Shown one piece after another: positions 6,070-26,821 of a stretch of DNA of 30,371 bases; position 1 is the stretch's first letter, and each line of letters begins with the position of its first letter. The DNA is taken from the NCBI GenBank assembly GCA_028281945.1, contig JANQIW010000095.1, forward strand, positions 1 through 30,371, written 5' to 3'. Made by a program: the position numbers and the translations under genes. Origin of the DNA: Prochloraceae cyanobacterium PL24a_bin.78. Lineage in GTDB: Bacteria > Cyanobacteriota > Cyanobacteriia > Cyanobacteriales > JANQIW01. A model generated the notes under the pieces. It saw only the letters and a program-made list of their open reading frames with translations. It did not search any database and was not told the DNA's origin.

Positions 6070-6105
6070 ATCAGAAATCTAACAGAAATCTAACAGAAAT
6101 TTAAT
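6070..6105. repeat. Tandem 11-nt repeat (TAACAGAAATC x3) in the convergent intergenic spacer
   Basis: 'cagaaatctaacagaaatctaacagaaatttaatc' lies between the 3' ends of the DUF547 gene and the RNB gene. Confidence 0.6.
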
Positions 6106-8017
6106 CAAAAGAGGAATAAGCAAAAGTTTGTTTTAACCTCTTTAATAAACTAGAAGCTGCCAATTGTTTAGCTTCTTTTTTGCTTTTACCATTACCTTTA
6201 TTGGTAAAAGTTTTATCTTCTAAAATAAGAGTTACTATACATTGAAAACCATTTGCTAATGACGAATATTTATAGTTAGGCACAGGCCAACTTAACTGTT
6301 GAGAAAGATTATTTAAAATAGCAATAGAATTGTCAGAAGATTCAAAAATTTCGTTAATATATTCTTCATTAAATTCTTCTCCCCAAAAATAATCTTCATC
6401 TTCAATCCATTCTTCTTCTTCCTCAATTTCGTCATTTTGTATTGCTAGCAAATTATTAGTATTGTCTGTATTTTTTTCTATTTTTGATGTATTTTGAAAA
6501 TTGAAATTTCTTTCTTCAATTGTTACTAATTCCTCTTCACAAAATGCCACTAACCATTGAGAAGCTGCGGATTGTTTAGCTTCTTTTTTAGAATTAGCAA
6601 TTTCAGGATTAAAAGTAGTTTCATCATCTACCACTAACCATGCAGCAAAAGGAGGTGCAGATAATTCTTCATAAATAAAATCTACTTGTTTGCCCATTTG
6701 TCTAGCAATTGAATTTAAAGCTTGGAGAAAATCTGAAGGATTTTTGTCCCCCCAATCTTTTAATTCTTCGAGTTTTAATTCATGCTTGAAAATGATTAAA
6801 GCGACATCTTTAAGAGTTAAAGTATTTTTATTAAATCTATTAATTATTTCAGGTAATAGTTTACCAATATTCTCATCATTAGCTACCTCTAAAAGTTTAG
6901 TAAATTCTTTAGCTGATAAACGAGAATAAATAGATTCATCTTGCAGATTTTGATTAATTATAGCTTGTGATTTTGCTTTCATAATCTCTTTTTTAGTTTG
7001 ACGAGTTTGTTCGCGATACTCATTAAGATGGTTGGCTATTTTTTCTAATTCTTCTTGAGTATATGGAATATTTTCTCCTTTAATTATAGACTTAATAATG
7101 CGATGATTAACTATATCTGCATATCTTCTAATAGGAGAAGTAAAGTGACAATAACTATCTAAATTTAAAGCAAAATGTCCTTCACAATTTTCTTGATAAA
7201 CCGCAGGTTTAAGATGGGATTGTAAATATTTTCTAATTAATTCGCTACTACCTAAATCTCTTAAACTTTTGATAAAAGTGTTTCTATCTTCAGGAATTTC
7301 TCCTGCTTTATGATTGCGATACATTCCTAGCTGGGTTTTTTCTAATAAAAAATTAGCAATAGCCATATTAGCTAAAATCATAAATTCAGCGATAATTTGC
7401 TGACTATTATATTGAATTTCTTTAGTAATATTTCCTTCTTCATCTAAGTTTAAATCCCCAATAGACATTGAACCAATTGCCCCTCTATCTTGACGAAGAT
7501 AATTTAATTTTTTAGCCCAAATTTCGCAATATTTTAAAAGAGGATATAATTGTTTTGATGGAGAAATTAAAGTTAAATCTGCCTCTTCATAAGCAAATCT
7601 TTTAATACTAATTAATAAGGTTTCTTGGATTTCAGTATTAACAATATTAGCACTAGAATCTAAAGTTATTTTTACAGTTAATGTAGGGCGATGTTTTCCT
7701 TCTAAAAGACTAGTTTTTTCTTCTGACAAGATTCTGGGAAACATAGGAATATTTCCTTTAGCTAAATAGACAGTTTCCACTCTTGTTAATGCTTCTTTGT
7801 CTAAGGCACTATTTTTATGAACATAAGCAGAGACATCTGTGATATGAATACTTAAAATTGCACCATTATTAATAATTTCAATCCAAATAGCATCATCTAA
7901 ATCTTTACTACTACTAGAGTCAATGGTAAAACCACATACCTGAGGGCGGCTTGAATAATCTATTGTAACTGTATTAGCTTCTGTTAGGACTTCTCTGGTA
8001 AATATTTTTTTAAACAT
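6101..8017 (-). CDS. RNB-domain 3'-5' exoribonuclease (RNase II/R family) with two C-terminal dsRNA-binding motifs and no CSD or S1 domains
   Basis: 638 aa. The RNB catalytic signature 'SSSKDLDDAIWIE...IHITDVSAYV' sits at the very N-terminus, so no cold-shock domains precede it. The C-terminus carries two DSRM units: '...PSDFLQALNSIARQMGKQVDFIYEE...SKKEAKQSAASQWLVAF' and '...NSIAILNNLSQQLSWPVPNYKY...KSKKEAKQLAASSLLKRLKQ'. An acidic linker (EEEEEWIEDEDYFWGEEF) separates them. Confidence 0.8.
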   Translation of the reverse strand: MFKKIFTREVLTEANTVTIDYSSRPQVCGFTIDSSSSKDLDDAIWIEIINNGAILSIHITDVSAYVHKNSALDKEALTRVETVYLAKGNIPMFPRILSEEKTSLLEGKHRPTLTVKITLDSSANIVNTEIQETLLISIKRFAYEEADLTLISPSKQLYPLLKYCEIWAKKLNYLRQDRGAIGSMSIGDLNLDEEGNITKEIQYNSQQIIAEFMILANMAIANFLLEKTQLGMYRNHKAGEIPEDRNTFIKSLRDLGSSELIRKYLQSHLKPAVYQENCEGHFALNLDSYCHFTSPIRRYADIVNHRIIKSIIKGENIPYTQEELEKIANHLNEYREQTRQTKKEIMKAKSQAIINQNLQDESIYSRLSAKEFTKLLEVANDENIGKLLPEIINRFNKNTLTLKDVALIIFKHELKLEELKDWGDKNPSDFLQALNSIARQMGKQVDFIYEELSAPPFAAWLVVDDETTFNPEIANSKKEAKQSAASQWLVAFCEEELVTIEERNFNFQNTSKIEKNTDNTNNLLAIQNDEIEEEEEWIEDEDYFWGEEFNEEYINEIFESSDNSIAILNNLSQQLSWPVPNYKYSSLANGFQCIVTLILEDKTFTNKGNGKSKKEAKQLAASSLLKRLKQTFAYSSFD

Positions 8018-9393: not shown

Positions 9394-10293
9394 ATTAAAA
9401 ATAATAAATTTTTATTATTAAGATAGTAACCAAGATTATTATCATTAATCCCATTTACTAGCTATATATTATATAGTTTATTATTTTAACTTAAAAACAT
9501 GAGACTACTTTAGTTTAATTTTTATCTTCAGCTAAGGAGATAATTGTATCTAAATTTATTATTGTATCTTAAATTGTCTTTTGATAAAATCTGTTAACAC
9601 TATCAATAATAACCATAAAATTATGATGTTTTATCCTCGTTTTTAAAACAAAATTTTCCTCTTTAATTTTTCTTTCAAGGCTGTTATAATCTATTCTTCA
9701 AGTTAAGAATTGTATGTATCATTATATTTCTACTGATTTTTGGAGTAATATTAATTGTTATTATCTTAATTCTTGTTACCAAAAATGTCGAGAAAATGCC
9801 TCTGTTAAATTTTTCTATAAAAGTTAAAATTAAAATTAGACGGAAATAAATCCTACGCAAGAAATAAACCAAACTTTTTTTTTGAAAATTTGTTATATCA
9901 AATGGTCTTTAACAACGATAGAGTTAAAAAATCCCAAATCCAGGATAATTAACCAAAATTTATTCTCCCCATTCTTCCCATTTTCTCCATTCTCCCCTCA
10001 ATATCTATCACTATTAAAGAGAAACGATATTAACCATGTGATGAATATGAGTTTTTGGTTGGCTTGCTTGTTTGATTTGTGATTACTAATTATGATTTTT
10101 AAATTTGATTAACCTGACTCACAAAAATTTTTACAAAAAAAAGATATAGATAAAAATACATTTATTCTTATCTTTTTATGTTTATAGATTTTAAATAACC
10201 TAAATCAATTAGAAACTTAATATTTTTCAGGTAAATTTGGGAAAAGAAAAAACTCGATTTGATCATCGACTTATGACTTAAATACAAATTAAA

Positions 10294-12144
10294 TCAAGAT
10301 TCTCCTTTAAGCAATAATTCCATTCCTTTTGCCGTTTCGGCTTGAATTTTTAATTCATTACCAATGTCATCAGTAAGTTTTTTTAACTCTTCTCCTAAAC
10401 CTTGTGGCAATAAAACTTGTGTACTTTGAGCCGTTGCCAAAATCCCTGCAACTTCCAATAAACGTTGCAATAAAAGATTACGAGCTTCTTCGCATTTTTC
10501 TAAACTTTTCAACCAACCTTGAGGTAATTGATTGTATTGTAAAGACTGAGTTTCTAAATAAGATAAAGTTCGATCTAATCCATCTAATTGAATTGCTGCA
10601 TCGGCAGATACTTTAAGCAAATTAGATACATATCCCACTATTTCTTCTCGTTGTTCGGGAGTTTTTCTGGTATCAAACCAAATTTGACTAATGCGGACAA
10701 TATCGCTAAATAAATTACGGGCTGTAGTAGAATTTAAATCTTCCATAATTTCTACCACAATTTCTTGGAGTTTGGAGGGTAATTTTGATTGACTAGGCCC
10801 CGGAGTAAGTAATGGTTTTCCTATAGATTGATGAGCCAACAATAACAATCCTATGGCAAATAGCCCACTAAAACCTCCACTGACAAAGGATCCTACTCCC
10901 AAAATCGCCCCTGTTAAACCGTAAAAATTCTGAGGAATTGCTTTCCAAAGTTGATTTTTACTTAAAGCACGTACATAAATTTGTTTTTTAGCTAATTCTT
11001 CTACTACTGAATTAACTTGAGAGTCATCGAGACACACTAATGCTTTAGTTCCTGAAATAGTTTCTTTTAAACCCTCTCGTTGTGGGGATAAATTAAACAA
11101 CGCTCTAATTTTATCTAGGTTTTTTTCTTGTTTATCTTTATCTCCGTGAAGAGATTCTAACAGCAAATAGGTGGAAGGTTTAGAGACTATTCCTTTGCAT
11201 CCAGGACATATAGAAATTCCTAAAAAGGTTTCTGTTCCACAAACTAGACATGAATGATTGGATTTCTTTAAAGATTTAGCCATTCCACTCTTATCTATCA
11301 AAGTAATTCCTTGGCTTTTATTTTCAGATAATGCTTCCTCAAATCTAGCTACACTAGAAAAGCGATCGTTAGGATTAGCACAAGTAGCTTTAGCAATTAC
11401 TTCATCCAACCAAAAAGGAACATCTAGGCAAATATCTTTGACATGACAGCCTAAAGCTGGAAACTTTCCATCTAATGGTCGGTAAATTTCACCTGTAAGG
11501 GCAAAATATAAAGTCATTCCTAATGCAAATATATCGCCTTTAGAATTAATTTCTTTGCCATCTAGTACTTCTGGTGGAGTATATAATCCATCAAACAACC
11601 GCTTTCTTTCATTTTTACTTAGTTGATGTTCTATTCTGATAGAGCCAAAGTCACTTAAACGAGAATAACCATTGGATTCTAGAAAAATATTATTAGGTTT
11701 AATATTTCCGTGAATTATACCACGTCTATGAGCGGCGGCTAAAGCAGAAGCTATTTGTATACCAATAGAAACTACTTTATCTGAGGGTAAAACTCCTTCT
11801 TGTTTGATTATGGTTTGCAGGTTAGTCCCATCAACTAACTCCATAATTATGAGACTGCGATCAACTAAATCCATAATTATGAGAGTTTGGGAGTCAAAAT
11901 CTATATAATCGTAAGTTTGGATAATGTGAGGATGATTAAGAGAACGAGCTGCTATAACCCTTTTCTTAGTTTTTTCTTTACCTATTTTTGCTAAAATAGG
12001 AGGAGGTATTAATTGTTTTACAGCCACATTTTGTTTCAATTGAATGTCTTCGGCTTTGTAAACAACAGAATACCTGCCTCGTCCAATCTCCTTGATAATG
12101 GAATAACGGTCTTGTATAACTGTTCCGGGAGCAAAATAATTCAT
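10294..12144 (-). CDS. Membrane-anchored Hanks-type Ser/Thr protein kinase homologue with HGN replacing the catalytic HRD (predicted pseudokinase), a zinc ribbon, one TM helix and a helical C-terminal domain
   Basis: 616 aa. Gly-loop 'IGRGRYSVVY', beta3 Lys 'VAVKQL', DFG 'SDFGS', 'YTPPE' and 'DIFALGMTLY' are all present. The catalytic loop reads 'IIHGNIKPNNIFL' where HRDLKPxN is expected (DNA GGAAAT where CGNGAY is expected). After the kinase come 'CLVCGTETFLGISICPGCKG' (CxxC...CxxC), a TM segment 'LTGAILGVGSFVSGGFSGLFAIGLLLLA', and about 190 aa of helical C-terminus. Confidence 0.8.
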   Translation of the reverse strand: MNYFAPGTVIQDRYSIIKEIGRGRYSVVYKAEDIQLKQNVAVKQLIPPPILAKIGKEKTKKRVIAARSLNHPHIIQTYDYIDFDSQTLIIMDLVDRSLIIMELVDGTNLQTIIKQEGVLPSDKVVSIGIQIASALAAAHRRGIIHGNIKPNNIFLESNGYSRLSDFGSIRIEHQLSKNERKRLFDGLYTPPEVLDGKEINSKGDIFALGMTLYFALTGEIYRPLDGKFPALGCHVKDICLDVPFWLDEVIAKATCANPNDRFSSVARFEEALSENKSQGITLIDKSGMAKSLKKSNHSCLVCGTETFLGISICPGCKGIVSKPSTYLLLESLHGDKDKQEKNLDKIRALFNLSPQREGLKETISGTKALVCLDDSQVNSVVEELAKKQIYVRALSKNQLWKAIPQNFYGLTGAILGVGSFVSGGFSGLFAIGLLLLAHQSIGKPLLTPGPSQSKLPSKLQEIVVEIMEDLNSTTARNLFSDIVRISQIWFDTRKTPEQREEIVGYVSNLLKVSADAAIQLDGLDRTLSYLETQSLQYNQLPQGWLKSLEKCEEARNLLLQRLLEVAGILATAQSTQVLLPQGLGEELKKLTDDIGNELKIQAETAKGMELLLKGES

Positions 12145-12156
12145 AGTCGAGTGAAT

Positions 12157-12777
12157 TTAGAACCGTTGCTGATTAAAAGCTTCAATATCTTCTAAAACTG
12201 TTAGAGCATTATTACGCCAACCATCATTATTGGAGTAAATACGAAGGAATCTTTCTAGATTTATTTCTGCTTCATAATAAGAACCTATCAGATATTCAAA
12301 CATACCAGCATGGTATAAAGCTATGTAATTGTTTGGTTGATATTCTAACACTAAATTCATAATAGGCCCTGCTGATTCTTCATCTCCAGCATCGGCGATG
12401 GGACTCGCTAGGTTAAATATTACTGAAGCTGCATATTCTTTATGTCTGTAACATGGTAATTTTTCGATTAATTCTCTAGCCTCATCAATTTTCCCTGCCA
12501 AAGCGTAGCATCCAGCGGCATATGCTCTGCCTTCAATGGTATTGGGGTGGGGGTTAGAAAGGATTGCTGTTGTTACTTCTACAGAATTGCATTGAGGTTT
12601 GATGGAATTAAACCATTTTTCCCCTCTTGAGATATTTCTGGAGTTGTCTCGATGGGATGATATTTCTTGCTTAGTATAGTTTGATCTTGTTTGTGTTTCT
12701 GGGATAAAAGGGCGAGCCGCTAATATCAATGTACAAAGTCCGAGATAGGTAAATCCTAATTTATAAAGTAAACGCAT
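12157..12777 (-). CDS. Secreted TPR-like / helical repeat protein
   Basis: 206 aa. Signal-peptide-like N-terminus 'MRLLYKLGFTYLGLCTLILAA', then Ala/Tyr-rich helical repeats ('AYAAGCYALAGKIDEARELIEKL', 'ALYHAGMFEYLIGSYYEAEINLERF'). Ends 12 bp upstream of the kinase start. Confidence 0.5.
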   Translation of the reverse strand: MRLLYKLGFTYLGLCTLILAARPFIPETQTRSNYTKQEISSHRDNSRNISRGEKWFNSIKPQCNSVEVTTAILSNPHPNTIEGRAYAAGCYALAGKIDEARELIEKLPCYRHKEYAASVIFNLASPIADAGDEESAGPIMNLVLEYQPNNYIALYHAGMFEYLIGSYYEAEINLERFLRIYSNNDGWRNNALTVLEDIEAFNQQRF

Positions 12778-12855: not shown

Positions 12856-15486
12856 TTAGTTCAAGTTCATTTTTTTTGTTATTTTGGGGACTATTTTTAA
12901 AATTGGTTTAGCATCAACTCCTAGATTTCTAGCTTCTTCAAATAATTTCTTGACAAGTTGACTGTATTCTTGGCGAGTTATTTTTTCTTTGGATGCTTCT
13001 GACATTAGTCTTGCTGTATATTCTTGCAATACTACTACTTTGTCTGAGGGTAAATCTGAGCTTATGTTTTCTACTATTTGAGCTAATCCTTCTAAGGCGG
13101 TATCTTTTTCATAGCGATTGGCTATTTCTATCATTAATTTGGCAAACCTAAAAAATAGAGGTTTAAATTTTAAACCTTCAAGCATTGTACAACTTGCTTT
13201 TGGTGGGCAAATTTCACTGAGGATATTTTGATCTACGTCTTCAACTCCTATGGCTAAAAAGTTTAGTTTCTCTTCTGCAAAAGCTTCTTGAATTTTTTCT
13301 GCTGATTGTTGCCAGTTGTCATCAAGAGTACTACCTGCAATGGTGATGATCCAAGGTTGATAGTGTTGAATATTTTGCTCTTTAAAAATCTTTTGACGAT
13401 CGTCAATTACCTTAAGTGCTAATTCTAATCCTTCTCCTATGGCTGTGGATCCTTCTAATTCGACTTCAGTGAGGTTATAGTTTGCATTATCAGTAAAAGG
13501 TTTAATGGTTTTTACTGGTGTACCAAAGGTTATAATTGCTACTTCGATACACTTATTAGTATTTGGATCATTGCTTAATTGTTCTTTAAATTTATTGATC
13601 CCTTTGATTAATTCTTCCTTATACTCTGTTGACATGGAATCAGACGTGTCTATCAGTAATACTACTAAACACTTAGGTAAAGCTTCTTTTAGTCGAGGCT
13701 GAGTATATTCTCCGTTGCTTGGTAATTGGGATTGATTTGATGAAGTATCAAGCATTGGGGTAACAAATGCTTCCAAAATTTCCGAGCGTCCACCATCAGA
13801 GTTTACTAAAACATGGGGGAGTTGAATATTTGACCAATTATTGATTTTTAGGTAATTAAAATAATTATGAACACCACCAAGAGCTTGAATTTTAGATTGA
13901 ATTGATTCTGCATCTGCTTGATCTTGATACCATTGTGCTTGTGCTTGATTTTTGGCAATTTGTATATTGTCTTGAGATTCATATAGTTTCTTTTGTCGAT
14001 CTGTTTGAAATTCAATTAATTCCTCTCTTTGTTTTGTGAAGGCTTCTTGTTCTATCAGTTTTCTACGTTTTTCTTCATTTTCGATTTTAACTTGATAGCT
14101 TTCTGTTTTTTGTCTTTCTATTTCTCGCTCAGTTAAAATCTTCTCAAGTTCCTCTGGTAAATCTATTTCATTAATTAATGTATTAACACCTATAATACCA
14201 TATGACTTTAAGCTTCTTTTTATATATCCTTTTACATTTTGTGCTATCGTATTTCTCGCAGAATGAAAGTCTATAGCTTTGAATTCTTGTGCTGCACTCC
14301 TAAAATAATAACTTATATTTGGTTCTAAAACTTTTTTAATCAAATTTCTCATGCGATCATATGGCTTGACTATATATTCTTTACTATTTTCAACTTTTTC
14401 TAAATCTAATCCTTGTGAATTAACAGAGACAATACTAGCAATCATCTTAGGAGCATTTTCTGGTAGTATTTGAATAATCTGGGTAAGTTCGATGTAAAAT
14501 TCAAATCCATCTTTGGAACGAAGGTTTAAAGGTTCGAGATTTAAATCATAGTTCATTGCAGTAGACTGAGACTCTTCTTTTTTTGACCAATCTAATGCTA
14601 TTTCGTTAGTAGGAACAAGATTTATCTTCTGTAGATAAGTATTTATAGGATATTTATTAGGTCGTAAAGGTTCTTTATGTATTCCTTTATATTCTTTATC
14701 TACTAAATACTCTTCACCATTTTTTAATTCTTTATCTTTTTTTGTCGTCTCCTTACAAGGAGGAGTTTTACCAACATAAGATATCACAACTCCTACTGTT
14801 CCAGTAGGAATTACTGTTAATGGAACTTTTTCTATTTTAACAAACCAAGGATTTAAATACCAGTTACCCACAGGAATTATTTCTTCTTGTAAACCTTTAC
14901 ACCCACCATTATCAATAAATGCTTGGGCATCTTGAAATTTGTTATGATCTTCTATACATGGACCTGCTATTTCGCCTTCTGGAATTGGTAGACCATCTTT
15001 AGTTGTAACAATGCCAATCATATCTGTTTCTATATGATAGACCTTTAAATCTTCTGGATTTACATTATGTTCTTTAGCATTGGCAGAAGTGATTACAGTA
15101 AAAAGTTTGGTATTAATTCTGTATGTTCCTGCTCTTAAGATTCCTAATTGTTCCCCTTTTTCCCCACCATTGGCTAAGAAAGCAACTCCATCTTGAAAAT
15201 CACTACAGGGAACTATTCTTCCTAAATTTTGTGTATAACTTTCTGCCTTTGTTTCTCCATCTTTAGCTACTACTAAACCAATTTCTCCTTGAGGAATTTC
15301 TATGGCAGGTACTATCTCAACTTCCATAAGCCAAGGACTATAAAAATGTGTACCAGGTGGAAGAATCTCTGCTTGATAACCAGTTTCCCCATTAGTAGCA
15401 ATTTGTTTTCCTGGTGGTAATTTAGAGCCAACTTTTTTATACTTAATTCCTACTTGGTTTGGTCCAATTTCAATGGTTTTTAACAT
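12856..15486 (-). CDS. SPFH/flotillin-like protein with triplicated N-terminal 'IPxGEIG..KDG' modules and a coiled coil, fused to a C-terminal von Willebrand factor A (vWA) domain
   Basis: 876 aa. SPFH-like 'GPNQVGIKYKK...ILPPGTHFYSPWLMEVEIV'. Three repeats: 'IPQGEIGLVVAKDG', 'IPEGEIAGPCIEDH' / 'IGIVTTKDG', 'IPTGTVGVVISYVG'. Flotillin-type EA-rich coiled coil 'ERQKTESYQVKIENEEKRRKLIEQEAFTKQREELIEFQTDRQKK'. vWA with a MIDAS 'LLIDTSDSM' (DxSxS), '...GSTAIGEGL' and 'IITIAGSTLDDN'. An extra helical tail of about 130 aa follows. Confidence 0.7.
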   Translation of the reverse strand: MLKTIEIGPNQVGIKYKKVGSKLPPGKQIATNGETGYQAEILPPGTHFYSPWLMEVEIVPAIEIPQGEIGLVVAKDGETKAESYTQNLGRIVPCSDFQDGVAFLANGGEKGEQLGILRAGTYRINTKLFTVITSANAKEHNVNPEDLKVYHIETDMIGIVTTKDGLPIPEGEIAGPCIEDHNKFQDAQAFIDNGGCKGLQEEIIPVGNWYLNPWFVKIEKVPLTVIPTGTVGVVISYVGKTPPCKETTKKDKELKNGEEYLVDKEYKGIHKEPLRPNKYPINTYLQKINLVPTNEIALDWSKKEESQSTAMNYDLNLEPLNLRSKDGFEFYIELTQIIQILPENAPKMIASIVSVNSQGLDLEKVENSKEYIVKPYDRMRNLIKKVLEPNISYYFRSAAQEFKAIDFHSARNTIAQNVKGYIKRSLKSYGIIGVNTLINEIDLPEELEKILTEREIERQKTESYQVKIENEEKRRKLIEQEAFTKQREELIEFQTDRQKKLYESQDNIQIAKNQAQAQWYQDQADAESIQSKIQALGGVHNYFNYLKINNWSNIQLPHVLVNSDGGRSEILEAFVTPMLDTSSNQSQLPSNGEYTQPRLKEALPKCLVVLLIDTSDSMSTEYKEELIKGINKFKEQLSNDPNTNKCIEVAIITFGTPVKTIKPFTDNANYNLTEVELEGSTAIGEGLELALKVIDDRQKIFKEQNIQHYQPWIITIAGSTLDDNWQQSAEKIQEAFAEEKLNFLAIGVEDVDQNILSEICPPKASCTMLEGLKFKPLFFRFAKLMIEIANRYEKDTALEGLAQIVENISSDLPSDKVVVLQEYTARLMSEASKEKITRQEYSQLVKKLFEEARNLGVDAKPILKIVPKITKKMNLN

Positions 15487-15583: not shown

Positions 15584-16579
15584 TCAATTTCCATCAATTC
15601 TGCATTTTTCACATCGAGATAAAAAGCCTTTAAAATTCTCTCTCCAAATTCCTAACTCTTCCTCTTCATCTGGATCCTTAGCTATACTGAATTGTAATGA
15701 AGGTAGATGTCCTCGTCTTGCTTGTAAATCAAAGGTGAAATCTTCATGTTTGAGCCATTCTTCATTTTGATACCAACCTACTAGTTCACCGAATTGATAG
15801 TAAAGTATGGGATTAAATTCTCCTTTTTTTCCTCCGATACTCAACCAAAGATCTCTTTGAACACTAAAACCAAAATGCCCTTTTGATTTATTTAACCAAA
15901 GATTATTGATGATTTTGAGGTCTTTACAAGGAAAATTTTCTATATCTTTAGGCTTTAACCAACCTTCTTTCTCTCTTTTGGCTACTTTTAGGATAACTTT
16001 TGCTGTTTCTATATCTGCTTCTTTCCATTGTCCTGCTTCGAGATATTCTCGTAATTGTTCATAATTGCCGATTATTTTGTCTTGATTAGGTTTCCTATAA
16101 GTATCTTGATGTGGTTGATATCCTATAGTTTCATTGGGCATCTCTAAAATTTCTGCGTCATACTGGATTCTTTGATTTCTAGTAGAATGAGAGAAGTTTT
16201 CAATTTCGTTAATAAGATGATCTACTTCAAACAATTCATCCCTCAATCTTTGAGACGAAGAAATTTGAGGATTTGTCGTTCTTGGAGGAAGATAATTCCT
16301 ATCCTGAAAATTCCCATAACTATCATATTCTGGAGGATATTGTCTGGATTTTGTGGATGAATCTTTTGTTTCTGCTTCTTCTGCCATTTCTGCTTCTAAA
16401 AGCTGGATGTCTTTTTCGCATTCTTCTATTTCTTCATCTAATTCTTCTATTTCGATTTTTAAGTCTCCAATTAATTTCAGATTAGATCTATTTTTGGCAA
16501 TATCTTGTTTATATTGAGCACGTCTTCTTTTTAAAGTATCCCTCGTTTTTTTGAGAATTTCCAAAGTTTCTTTTGACAT
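15584..16579 (-). CDS. Coiled-coil protein with a C-terminal GUN4-like (porphyrin-binding) domain
   Basis: 331 aa. The N-terminal ~70 aa is a charged coiled coil (LKIEIEELDEEIEECEKDIQLLEAEMAEEAE). C-terminal 'LREYLEAGQWKEADIETAKVIL...DLKIINNLWLNKSKGHFGFSVQRDLWLSIGG...FGELVGWY...RRGHLPS' matches the GUN4 domain signature. Confidence 0.7.
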   Translation of the reverse strand: MSKETLEILKKTRDTLKRRRAQYKQDIAKNRSNLKLIGDLKIEIEELDEEIEECEKDIQLLEAEMAEEAETKDSSTKSRQYPPEYDSYGNFQDRNYLPPRTTNPQISSSQRLRDELFEVDHLINEIENFSHSTRNQRIQYDAEILEMPNETIGYQPHQDTYRKPNQDKIIGNYEQLREYLEAGQWKEADIETAKVILKVAKREKEGWLKPKDIENFPCKDLKIINNLWLNKSKGHFGFSVQRDLWLSIGGKKGEFNPILYYQFGELVGWYQNEEWLKHEDFTFDLQARRGHLPSLQFSIAKDPDEEEELGIWRENFKGFLSRCEKCRIDGN

Positions 16580-17328: not shown

Positions 17329-17826
17329 ATGAATGATCAAGAATTAACAGAATTAATTAATAAACAAATCGTAGCTGAAATCCGAAATAGATATATACAA
17401 GGAGAAAGAGATTTTCAGGGAGCACAATTACAAGGAATTAACTTAAGTGGATTGAATTTAGCTGGAGTAGATTTAAGAGGAGCAAACTTATCAAAAGCTA
17501 ATTTATCAGGAACAAATTTAAGGGGAGCAAAATTAGAAAAAGCAAATCTAAGATCAGCGAAATTAAATAAAACTTGTTTAGTAGAAGCTAATTTAGTCAA
17601 AACAGACTTAAGAGATGCTAATTTGATCGAAGCAAAATTAAATCGGGCAAATCTTAGAGAAGCTAACCTTAACAAGACTTTATTAATTGAGGCAAATCTT
17701 GATGAAGCTAATCTACAAGAAACACAACTGATTGGCTCTTACTTAATCAGAATTAGTGTAATGGGAGTACATTTTCAGGAAGCAGAATATCAAAAGCAAA
17801 TTCAATTACTGCAAAAAATTGTTTAA
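17329..17826 (+). CDS. Pentapeptide-repeat protein
   Basis: 165 aa with about 20 tandem A(D/N)LxX pentapeptides ('GANLSKANLSGTNLRGAKLEKANLRSAKLNKTCLVEANLVKTDLRDANL...'). Confidence 0.85.
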   Translation: MNDQELTELINKQIVAEIRNRYIQGERDFQGAQLQGINLSGLNLAGVDLRGANLSKANLSGTNLRGAKLEKANLRSAKLNKTCLVEANLVKTDLRDANLIEAKLNRANLREANLNKTLLIEANLDEANLQETQLIGSYLIRISVMGVHFQEAEYQKQIQLLQKIV

Positions 17827-18180: not shown

Positions 18181-18243
18181 AGTTATTGATTGATTTTTAT
18201 TATATATTTTGATGTATTTAAACAGAAGATAGAGGGGGTTGAT

Positions 18244-18444
18244 ATGAAAGAAGTGTCTTCACAAATTATTAGTTTAGTTGAAAGTCTAAGAGATAAACAA
18301 CAAGATAGATTAACTATTACAAGTCATCTGGCTGATAAAATTCATAAAGTGCAAATCTTACTTGAAGAAAATTCCATTTTAGAGGCAAAAAAAATCATTG
18401 CTGATGCCTTACAAGAGTGTGAAGAGTTAATTAGAATAGTTTAA
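18244..18444 (+). CDS. Small helical protein (~66 aa), paralog A of an uncharacterised family
   Basis: Start taken at 'MKEVSS' preceded by the strong SD 'agagggggttgatATG'. Paralogous to the 18784 ORF. Confidence 0.45.
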   Translation: MKEVSSQIISLVESLRDKQQDRLTITSHLADKIHKVQILLEENSILEAKKIIADALQECEELIRIV

Positions 18445-18783: not shown

Positions 18784-18984
18784 ATGGATAACTTATCTAA
18801 TAGTTTAGAATTTTTAGCCAATACTATCAAAGAAAATAAGCAGGAAAGATTCACTAGATTAACTCAACTTGCAGATACAATGTATCAAGCAAAAATTTTA
18901 CTAAAGGAAGGAAAAAATAATGAGGCGGAAGAGTTTATAGAAATGGCAATTGATAATTGTCAAAAGATTTTATTAATAGGTTAA
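18784..18984 (+). CDS. Small helical protein (~66 aa), paralog B
   Basis: SD 'tagggagatgataaaATG'. Aligns with paralog A: 'KQQDRLTITSHLADKIHKVQILLEE...EAKKII..A...C' against 'KQERFTRLTQLADTMYQAKILLKE...EAEEFI..A...C'. Confidence 0.45.
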   Translation: MDNLSNSLEFLANTIKENKQERFTRLTQLADTMYQAKILLKEGKNNEAEEFIEMAIDNCQKILLIG

Positions 18985-25690: not shown

Positions 25691-26821
25691 TTAATTAGCT
25701 TGATAAATTTTTAATCTTTCTTGATATTTAGCGACTAAAGACTTCATTGATTTGACATTTTGGTTATAATACCCCTTAGATAGATGAGAGTAACAAGTAA
25801 GGGAAGCCCAAACACGACAAGATTTAATAATAGCTTCTTTCAAATTACCTTGTTTTAATTTTCGCAGAGCACCTATCTCTTCTAATTTAGAAATAGCCCA
25901 TTTATCTTGTTCTTGAGGTGCAAAAGAAGTCATATTTTTGGCATTAAAATCCAAAATTTGATAGCGACCAAAAGCAGTAGAACAAGTTTTTTTCCCACTT
26001 TCGGTGATATAGGTAATACATTTTTCGGGATGAGTGGTTAAATCATCAACTATTTCCCCACCAAATAAAGTTTTATAACCTAAAGGATGGAGGGTTCCTT
26101 CTGCCCATGCAATGGTATCTAAAAATGCTTTTTCTTGGGGAGACAAAGAAGATAAAGCAGTAGTAGCTTTAGCAGGATTATATTTAATACTTATTTTCTC
26201 TTGATAAACTGGTTCTACCTGTTGAGTTTTTTGTTCTAATTTAGGATGAGGATTACGCTCGGATGATAGTGAGTTTAAACCAAAAGCAATACTAAATACA
26301 GAAGCCACCGCCATTGACATCATGCCAAGAGAAATTACCTTTTTTTTCTTTTTAAGATTTCTTTTATTGACTTTTGCTAAATCCTCTGGAATAGTAATAA
26401 CTATAAATTTGCCAGAATTTAAATTTTTCATAAAGAAACGTTTAGATCCTTGTAAATCTCGAGTATCCTTTAAGAGGAAATCTAGAATATTACCTTGAGA
26501 ATCTATTGCTTTATAAATATAGATATCTTGACCTTGAATAACTATTTTTCTTTCAACAACTTGCCAATCGGAAATTTTCTTGGCTTCATACTTCATTTTC
26601 TTAACTTGGGAAGAATAACGTCTAACTAAGGAAAAGAATGTGACACGATCGAGATCAAATCCCCTTTGAGACATGATCTTCTCAATTTTACGGTAGTTTT
26701 TATCGTAGTAAACATACCAGGCAACGCAAAGTAAGAGCATCTCTTCTTTTGTTTCTTTCCAAGAGCTTTTCAACTGAGCTTGGAGTTTATGATTATATTT
26801 ATTATTTAAAGTTGAACTCAT
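25691..26821 (-). CDS. Chimeric ORF: degenerate IS6-family transposase N-terminal fragment fused in frame to a SAR-type (signal-anchor) lambda-R-like lysozyme / lytic transglycosylase
   Basis: Residues ~28-140 'LLLCVAWYVYYDKNYRKIEKIMSQRGFDLDRV...WQVVERKIVIQGQDIYIYKAIDSQGNILDFLLKDTRDLQGSKRFFMKNL' align with the IS26 transposase block 'ILWAVRWYCKYGISYRELQEMLAERGVNVDHST...WHMDETYVKVNGRWAYLYRAVDSRGRTVDFYLSSRRNSKAAYRFLGKIL', but DETY reads VERK. A weakly hydrophobic A/G/S-rich TM 'MMSMAVASVFSIAFGL' follows. The C-terminus 'KAFLDTIAWAEGT...GYKTLFGGE...HP...CSTAFGRYQIL...AIIKSCRVWASL' matches lambda R endolysin 'KAFLDMLAWSEGT...GYDVIVGGE...HP...STGAGRYQLL...AIDRCSNIWASL'. Confidence 0.65.
   Translation of the reverse strand: MSSTLNNKYNHKLQAQLKSSWKETKEEMLLLCVAWYVYYDKNYRKIEKIMSQRGFDLDRVTFFSLVRRYSSQVKKMKYEAKKISDWQVVERKIVIQGQDIYIYKAIDSQGNILDFLLKDTRDLQGSKRFFMKNLNSGKFIVITIPEDLAKVNKRNLKKKKKVISLGMMSMAVASVFSIAFGLNSLSSERNPHPKLEQKTQQVEPVYQEKISIKYNPAKATTALSSLSPQEKAFLDTIAWAEGTLHPLGYKTLFGGEIVDDLTTHPEKCITYITESGKKTCSTAFGRYQILDFNAKNMTSFAPQEQDKWAISKLEEIGALRKLKQGNLKEAIIKSCRVWASLTCYSHLSKGYYNQNVKSMKSLVAKYQERLKIYQAN

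Follow-up and report, generated by a model that had tools for sequence, protein, structure and literature searches.

The DNA analysed here, referred to below as the window, comprises 30,371 nucleotides (positions 1 to 30,371 of contig JANQIW010000095.1, GenBank assembly GCA_028281945.1) from Prochloraceae cyanobacterium PL24a_bin.78. Our subject is a gene of 616 codons on its minus strand (10294-12144), defined by the reading of the open reading frame (ORF), by a Pfam Pkinase match and by colinearity with orthologues. We propose that it encodes a maintained, probably non-phosphorylating pseudokinase derived from an active membrane-anchored serine/threonine kinase, a reading to which we give a probability of roughly 0.6 on the strength of sequence comparison. 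By its conserved gene order it belongs to an uncharacterised two-gene module, in which a membrane-anchored, sensor-like partner of about 200 residues is followed by the kinase. All features of the two genes described below lie on the minus strand.

The Hanks-type kinase domain covers residues ~14-275 (11320-12105), as delimited with Pfam PF00069, phmmer and Foldseek. The N-terminal ~275 residues match the Pkinase profile with 126 bits against a cut-off of 31.7 (E = 2.4e-36), and the best matches of the domain among solved kinases in phmmer are StkP (E = 1.9e-27), then PknB and Stk1. The reverse complement of 11680-11739 gives residues 136-155 as AAAHRRGIIHGNIKPNNIFL, where the catalytic loop contains H145-G146-N147 (CAC GGA AAT, 11704-11712) in the place at which HRD is expected. 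Indeed, the triplet falls precisely on the HRD of StkP in the alignment, and codons 146-147 (GGA AAT, 11704-11709) replace both the arginine and the catalytic-base aspartate (R146G, D147N). The replacement of HRD by HGN had been claimed in an earlier note made from the letters of this DNA, and it is borne out by the ORF reading, by the alignment with StkP and by the orthologues: we compared the protein with 46 non-redundant orthologues, taking as conserved the columns with at least 90% identity (130 columns), and the arginine and the aspartate of the triplet are both 100% conserved. A pseudokinase is defined by sequence as a kinase-like protein lacking at least one of the β3 lysine, the HRD aspartate and the DFG aspartate (PMC12599244, PMC13519141). 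The window protein, in which the HRD aspartate is absent, was rightly called a pseudokinase in this sense.

The canonical triplet is the rule in the family. All 18 full-length homologues of a first database search (~610 residues, 30-35% identity) carry HRDVKPxN, and HRD was found in each of the 73 fetched genome loci with a detected catalytic loop (~70 of the two-gene type and 3 fused). It was also present in almost all of the best 150 cluster representatives of a HMMER scan of 1.84 billion representatives. In total, HRD is carried by more than 100 members of the family. The closest full-length relatives from that scan, P0133 and P0134 (39-41% identity), both carry HRD, and P0133 has CGG GAT where the window has GGA AAT. 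No relative close to this gene with the HGN codons at 146-147 was recovered in three database searches, one metagenome scan and a scan of 185,579 species genomes. The orthologue alignment that the earlier note had proposed, to see whether HGN is a trait of the clade, gave this no support: outside the immediate lineage the orthologues have HRD, the nearest ones included, and the sole other HGN member, P0206, is unrelated to the window protein within the family. A catalytic loop of the 'HGx' type, as in SelO, Bud32 or APH, was ruled out, the family consensus being the canonical HRDVKPxN. Judged by these alignments, the HGN substitution is not chance variation.

We then asked what else distinguishes the window protein from its orthologues. 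Of the 130 conserved columns it deviates at 42; the other members do so at no more than 26, and at a median of 2. Many of the 42 changes are conservative and in line with an AT bias (R→K, V→I). Non-conservative changes are found at columns that are 100% conserved elsewhere, namely G24R, E62R, R146G, D147N, T178N, G181K, G185D, T186G, R198E, D200N and P221Y, and the residue mapping, E62R included, was confirmed against StkP. Position 62 (11959-11961) lies in helix αC, and its arginine replaces the glutamate that pairs with the β3 lysine; this glutamate is 100% conserved in the orthologues and aligns with that of the StkP 'RFQRE'. In the glycine-rich loop GRGRYS (12067-12084), G21 and G23 are kept, and the change of G24 to arginine is lineage-specific, being present also in the sister protein P0132 described below. 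The activation segment (residues 168-192, 11569-11643) is degenerate: it bears T178N, G181K, G185D, T186G and a one-residue deletion, and it is modelled with a predicted local distance difference test score (pLDDT) of 62-70. Thus, both the phospho-acceptor threonine of the activation loop and the P+1 Gly-Thr pair are gone.

The retained residues are as informative as the lost ones. The β3 lysine K43 of VAVK (12016-12018), the catalytic-loop Asn152 (11689-11691), a metal/ATP ligand at an invariant column, and the DFG motif D165-F166-G167 (11644-11652) are all kept, as are E192, D204, R261 and the four cysteines of a zinc ribbon. The signature residues of the C-terminal region of the family, for example E552, R555 and Q560, are kept as well. 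The motifs that the earlier note had listed as retained are indeed present, in the forms GRGRYS, K43, DFG (165-167), PPE (with E192) and DIFALG (204-209). Its statement that the kinase motifs are otherwise intact was not upheld, however, since the αC glutamate, the HRD arginine, the activation-loop threonine and the P+1 Gly-Thr have all disappeared, and G24R and a duplication in β5 must be added to these lesions. According to these comparisons, the catalytic and regulatory apparatus is degraded and the residues of the nucleotide pocket are kept together with the scaffold.

The β5 lesion is an in-frame tandem duplication of 30 nucleotides, 26 of them identical between the copies (11824-11883), which encodes LIIMDLVDRS (residues 88-97) and LIIMELVDGT (98-107). 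The second copy corresponds to the orthologous β5 strand and hinge, and AlphaFold2 (AF2) models the first as a looped-out insert between β4 and β5 (pLDDT 69-78). Neither StkP nor any orthologue has these ten additional residues. Sister lineages of the window are represented by two short contigs, L085 and L092. The former (Logan SRR24907502) is 94.5% identical to the window over 1173 nucleotides without gaps, and runs from the end of the vWA gene upstream of the partner through the partner gene into kinase codons 1-10. The latter (ENA ERZ21854015, 2.6x coverage) contains the larger part of the partner gene together with kinase codons 1-133, the kinase fragment being P0132. G24R, E62R and the ten-residue duplication are common to L092; all three therefore predate the split between the two lineages, and the duplication, as read from the two contigs, is old and tolerated.

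The divergence between these two lineages bears on selection. In the N-lobe, 12 of 118 residues differ, and over codons 1-118 the ratio of non-synonymous to synonymous substitution rates (dN/dS) is 0.12, with a dS of 0.44. The 40 substitutions divide into 14.5 non-synonymous and 25.5 synonymous ones, when 78% would be non-synonymous under neutrality (binomial p = 4e-9). The partner gene gives dN/dS values of 0.29 against L085 and 0.21 against L092. Because the low kinase value was obtained from two lineages in which E62R, G24R and the duplication were already present, the purifying selection it indicates would have followed the lesions. We conclude from these substitution patterns that purifying selection acted on an already degraded kinase domain, and that the gene is maintained and not decaying.

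The same data bear on the idea that HGN stems from a mistake in sequencing or assembly, or that the lesion is confined to one strain or assembly. Its codons are indeed found in this contig only. However, an error would require separate nucleotide changes in two adjacent codons (CGG GAT to GGA AAT), and other catalytic changes of the same protein were independently confirmed in L092. We regard this explanation as very improbable.

A second member of the family has reached a comparable state. P0206 is a full-length member encoded in a genome of 69% GC. It was recovered from two samples, and upstream of it lies a partner gene whose product is 41% identical to that of the window. Its catalytic loop also reads HGN, here encoded GGC AAC, and it has accumulated further lesions: the αC glutamate is replaced by threonine, the glycine-rich loop is degenerate (GRSPHS) and 12 residues of the activation loop are deleted. 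It keeps the lysine, the asparagine, DFG, APE, the zinc ribbon, the transmembrane region and the C-terminal domain. Neighbour-joining places P0206 beside P0167 and, elsewhere in the tree, the window protein beside P0133; P0167 and P0133 both carry HRD. As far as the tree and the codons can tell, the HGN end state was thus reached twice independently, in genomes of opposite base composition. Since P0206 shows the same state at 69% GC, AT pressure alone cannot explain it.

Several points nevertheless weigh against the reading of a maintained, non-phosphorylating pseudokinase. Four of the conserved columns have changed from Asp to Asn in an AT-rich genome, and D147N could be drift from mutational bias and not a selected change. 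Codons 146-147 are known from a single contig, and no fragment from either sister lineage spans codons 119-261; the kinase dN/dS comes from the N-lobe alone, that is, from 118 codons. Moreover, L092 carries an in-frame TAA in place of TTA at codon 119 (L092 927-929, corresponding to ~11788-11790 in the window), at the invariant Leu119. Homologous sequence carries on in frame past this codon, and at 2.6x coverage the stop may reflect an error, or else a loss or truncation of very recent date; if real, it would mean that the protein is dispensable in that lineage. As for the module, we infer both that the partner is a sensor and that it interacts with the kinase. Finally, kinases with an Asp-to-Asn change can keep trace activity.

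Some of these observations would also fit relaxed constraint, with the gene in early decay towards a pseudogene in an AT-biased genome and no function retained. The Asp-to-Asn changes are consistent with AT pressure, the stop of L092 would be in line with such a decay, the 42 departures among 130 conserved columns far exceed those of any other member, and a 30-nucleotide duplication has been inserted within the kinase core. Nevertheless, the dN/dS of 0.12 at a dS of 0.44 between lineages already carrying E62R, G24R and the duplication is not what decay would leave, and the ORF of 616 codons is uninterrupted at ~31% GC, in DNA where chance stops are frequent. In addition, the duplication is in frame in both lineages, conservation extends to the C-terminal signature residues and to the partner gene, and P0206, in a GC-rich genome, ended in the same state. 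Decay therefore appears unlikely to us. The view of the earlier note that this is not a decayed gene holds on the same grounds: an intact reading frame, purifying selection over codons 1-118, a kept C-terminal signature and the parallel case of P0206.

The protein might instead be an atypical but active kinase, performing slow phosphotransfer without the catalytic base or with a substitute residue. K43, N152, DFG, the APE glutamate and the overall fold are all retained, the N-lobe with its ATP-binding elements is under strong purifying selection, and weak activity is known for HER3, with an HRN loop, and for JAK2 JH2, with HGN. What speaks against such an activity is that the losses are multiple, comprising the αC glutamate, the RD arginine, the activation-loop threonine and the P+1 threonine that positions the catalytic loop, and that the same combination recurs in P0206, where the activation loop is deleted as well. 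We consider persistent catalysis to be quite unlikely. A maintained pseudokinase remains our preferred reading, and in annotation the gene should not be named an active serine/threonine kinase.

Taking the two HGN members together, we tentatively raise a broader possibility, of which we are far less confident: the active subunit of one split receptor-kinase family may have switched to HGN at least twice independently, once in a cyanobacterium of 31% GC and once in a bacterium of 69% GC, on both occasions with loss of the αC glutamate and of the activation loop and with conservation of the partner, the hairpin and the helical bundle. If this is true, the module can pass on its output with no phosphotransfer, by way of a scaffold that depends on nucleotide or conformation, as in JAK JH2, and HGN would be a preferred convergent landing state of dead kinases across bacteria and eukaryotes. 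The family offers natural pairs of an active and a dead kinase, P0133 with the window protein and P0167 with P0206. A widespread, otherwise active module with two independent HGN derivatives, at least one of them apparently under purifying selection, provides a clean natural comparison, and the system could show what the scaffold of a bacterial receptor kinase does after catalysis is lost. A further question it prompts is why HGN turns up in JAK JH2, in VRK3 and again in bacteria.

The assignment to a two-gene module relies on the partner gene (12157-12777), which lies 12 nucleotides upstream of the pseudokinase gene on the same strand. It encodes 206 residues, with an N-terminal membrane anchor and a cysteine-containing TPR-like domain, and was recognised by its homology to partners found upstream of the kinase in ~80 genomes. 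In the homologues, a gene of about 200 residues without a Pfam match overlaps the kinase start codon. The window partner is 43-46% identical to the partners of the first homologues, a value above that of the kinase itself, and 41-53% identical to those of the loci L001, L002, L005, L093 and L095. Its TPR matches are weak; it has a single N-terminal hydrophobic anchor, and the cysteines of the TPR-like domain are conserved. Used as a specific probe on one genome per species (the 185,579 species genomes), the partner retrieved ~80 loci, mostly from Gemmatimonadales, with a few from Gloeobacterales and other cyanobacteria. The window protein is colinear over 99% of its length with the orthologues of ~610 residues, and the three features that define the family, the CxxC...CxxC zinc ribbon, the transmembrane hairpin and the C-terminal helical domain, are all found in it. 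Apart from P0206, all other members examined have HRD, the αC glutamate and an activation loop with its threonine. The window protein is a rare, lineage-specific derivative within an otherwise active family.

In three cyanobacterial loci, the partner domain follows a different HRD kinase in one polypeptide, attached to its C-terminus by a single transmembrane segment: L049 (3008-4459), L052 (3050-4504) and L057 (2951-4432), from Gloeobacterales ES-bin-313, an uncultured cyanobacterium and Pleurocapsa sp. MO_192.B19, respectively. These fusions constitute, at the level of gene structure, a link of the Rosetta-stone type between the partner domain and kinases. Because they join the two through one transmembrane segment, the partner domain would lie opposite the kinase across the membrane, as expected of a sensor. 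Directly upstream of the partner gene is a gene for an 876-residue protein with an SPFH/Band-7 domain and a C-terminal vWA domain (12856-15486, minus strand), syntenic in L085. It was considered as a core component and rejected, as this synteny was seen in L085 only and the gene is absent beside the module in L001, L002, L004, L093 and L095.

The AF2 model of the window protein (mean pLDDT 84) shows a confident bilobal kinase fold with a poorly ordered activation segment. Foldseek gave template-modelling scores of 0.87 to Stk1 and of 0.84-0.87 to PknB. After the kinase domain come the zinc ribbon (C299, C302, C313 and C316; 11197-11250), which is invariant across the family, and a small α/β linker domain, seen in the AF2 model. 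A transmembrane helical hairpin is predicted at residues ~405-442 (10819-10932), with AF2 helices at 405-422 and 426-442 and a hydropathy peak at 413-438. The C-terminal helical bundle (residues ~457-612, 10309-10776) is modelled by AF2 and is specific to the family, and structure comparison returned only generic neighbours for it, with no named fold relative. Since the hairpin lies between them, the kinase domain and the helical bundle would both be cytoplasmic.

Among known systems, PknB, StkP and Stk1 are the closest Hanks-type Ser/Thr kinases, with the same fold, clear homology, a membrane anchor and a cytoplasmic N-terminal kinase domain. The window protein differs from them in having no PASTA domains, and in their stead the zinc ribbon, the hairpin and the helical bundle; it also lacks their catalytic aspartate, RD arginine, αC glutamate and activation-loop threonine. 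With respect to the catalytic loop, there is a eukaryotic parallel. HGN is the triplet of the JH2 domains of JAK1/2/3 and TYK2 and of VRK3, the JAK JH2 rows reading VxLK / HGN with the β3 lysine kept (PMC2639636), and it is common among animal kinase-like non-kinases (PMC2754085). The window protein shares with JAK JH2 the HGN loop and the retained β3 lysine of VAVK. In contrast, JH2 has DPG and stands in tandem with an active JH1; in the window protein the motif is DFG, the kinase-like domain stands alone and the αC glutamate is missing. The resemblance to JAK JH2 and VRK3 is an analogy of independent origin, with only membership of the kinase superfamily in common. By this analogy, the mode of action is likely to be similar to that of JAK JH2, with nucleotide-dependent or conformational regulation and not phosphotransfer. 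Two other multi-domain bacterial proteins, P0248 and P0255, combine an HRD kinase domain with a second HGN domain (HGNLKPxN) in a tandem layout like that of JAK JH1/JH2.

Pseudokinases are recognised in bacteria and have been almost unstudied experimentally; the families described are ActPs1-3/MviN, GLW, CP1, DYD, DLHK and EssB/YukC (PMC12599244). They resemble the window protein in combining a Hanks fold with degraded catalytic motifs. ActPs2 has an Asp-to-Asn change in HRD, a Lys-to-Arg change in β3 and a deletion of DFG (PMC12599244); only the first of these is shared, K43 and DFG being kept here. CP1 proteins, from cyanobacteria and proteobacteria, occur in the cytosol and in every case are linked to a COG3899 ATPase domain, with active and degraded members mixed (PMC12599244), whereas the window protein has a transmembrane hairpin and no COG3899 domain. 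It fits neither ActPs2 nor CP1 nor the other named families. That single lineages of an active kinase family give rise to a pseudokinase is, on the other hand, well known.

We propose the following scenario. The ancestral family would have been a split receptor kinase, made of a partner, tethered by one membrane anchor, whose TPR-like domain faces the kinase from across the membrane, and of a kinase subunit with its cytoplasmic kinase domain, zinc ribbon, transmembrane hairpin and cytoplasmic helical bundle. In the window lineage, the catalytic base, the RD arginine, the αC glutamate, the activation-loop threonine and the P+1 Gly-Thr have been replaced, while K43, N152, DFG, the fold, the zinc ribbon, the hairpin, the C-terminal bundle and the partner gene remain. 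Phosphorylation of substrates would have ended or become very weak. The protein would now serve as a conformational or scaffolding subunit, possibly nucleotide-binding, acting with the partner sensor in a manner analogous to JAK JH2.

The rest of the window contains several other features. Downstream of the pseudokinase gene, between it and dnaB, lie 900 nucleotides of ~27% GC (9394-10293), in which we found no ORF of at least 70 residues and no Rfam match, only short imperfect repeats. A tRNA-Val gene at 2020-2093 is the sole RNA gene found by Rfam and tRNA scans. On the far side of the SPFH/vWA gene, 15584-16579 (minus strand) encodes a GUN4-domain protein with a long N-terminal extension, coiled-coil and Glu-rich, and a pentapeptide-repeat gene occupies 17329-17826. 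These two genes, like the nearest homologues from Gloeobacterales and other cyanobacteria, are indicative of a cyanobacterial host. Two paralogous small ORFs of 84 and 66 residues (18190-18444 and 18784-18984, plus strand) share the pattern '...QxRxT...LAD...ILL.E...EA...I..A...C...I' and lie in a region of 24% GC with a strong GC skew. The only mobile-element signature of the window is a gene for an IS240-type DDE transposase at 25691-26821 (minus strand). Finally, 6101-8017 (minus strand) encodes a 638-residue RNB protein of the RNase II type with an acidic linker and two C-terminal dsrm motifs, which is unusual for a bacterial RNB protein.

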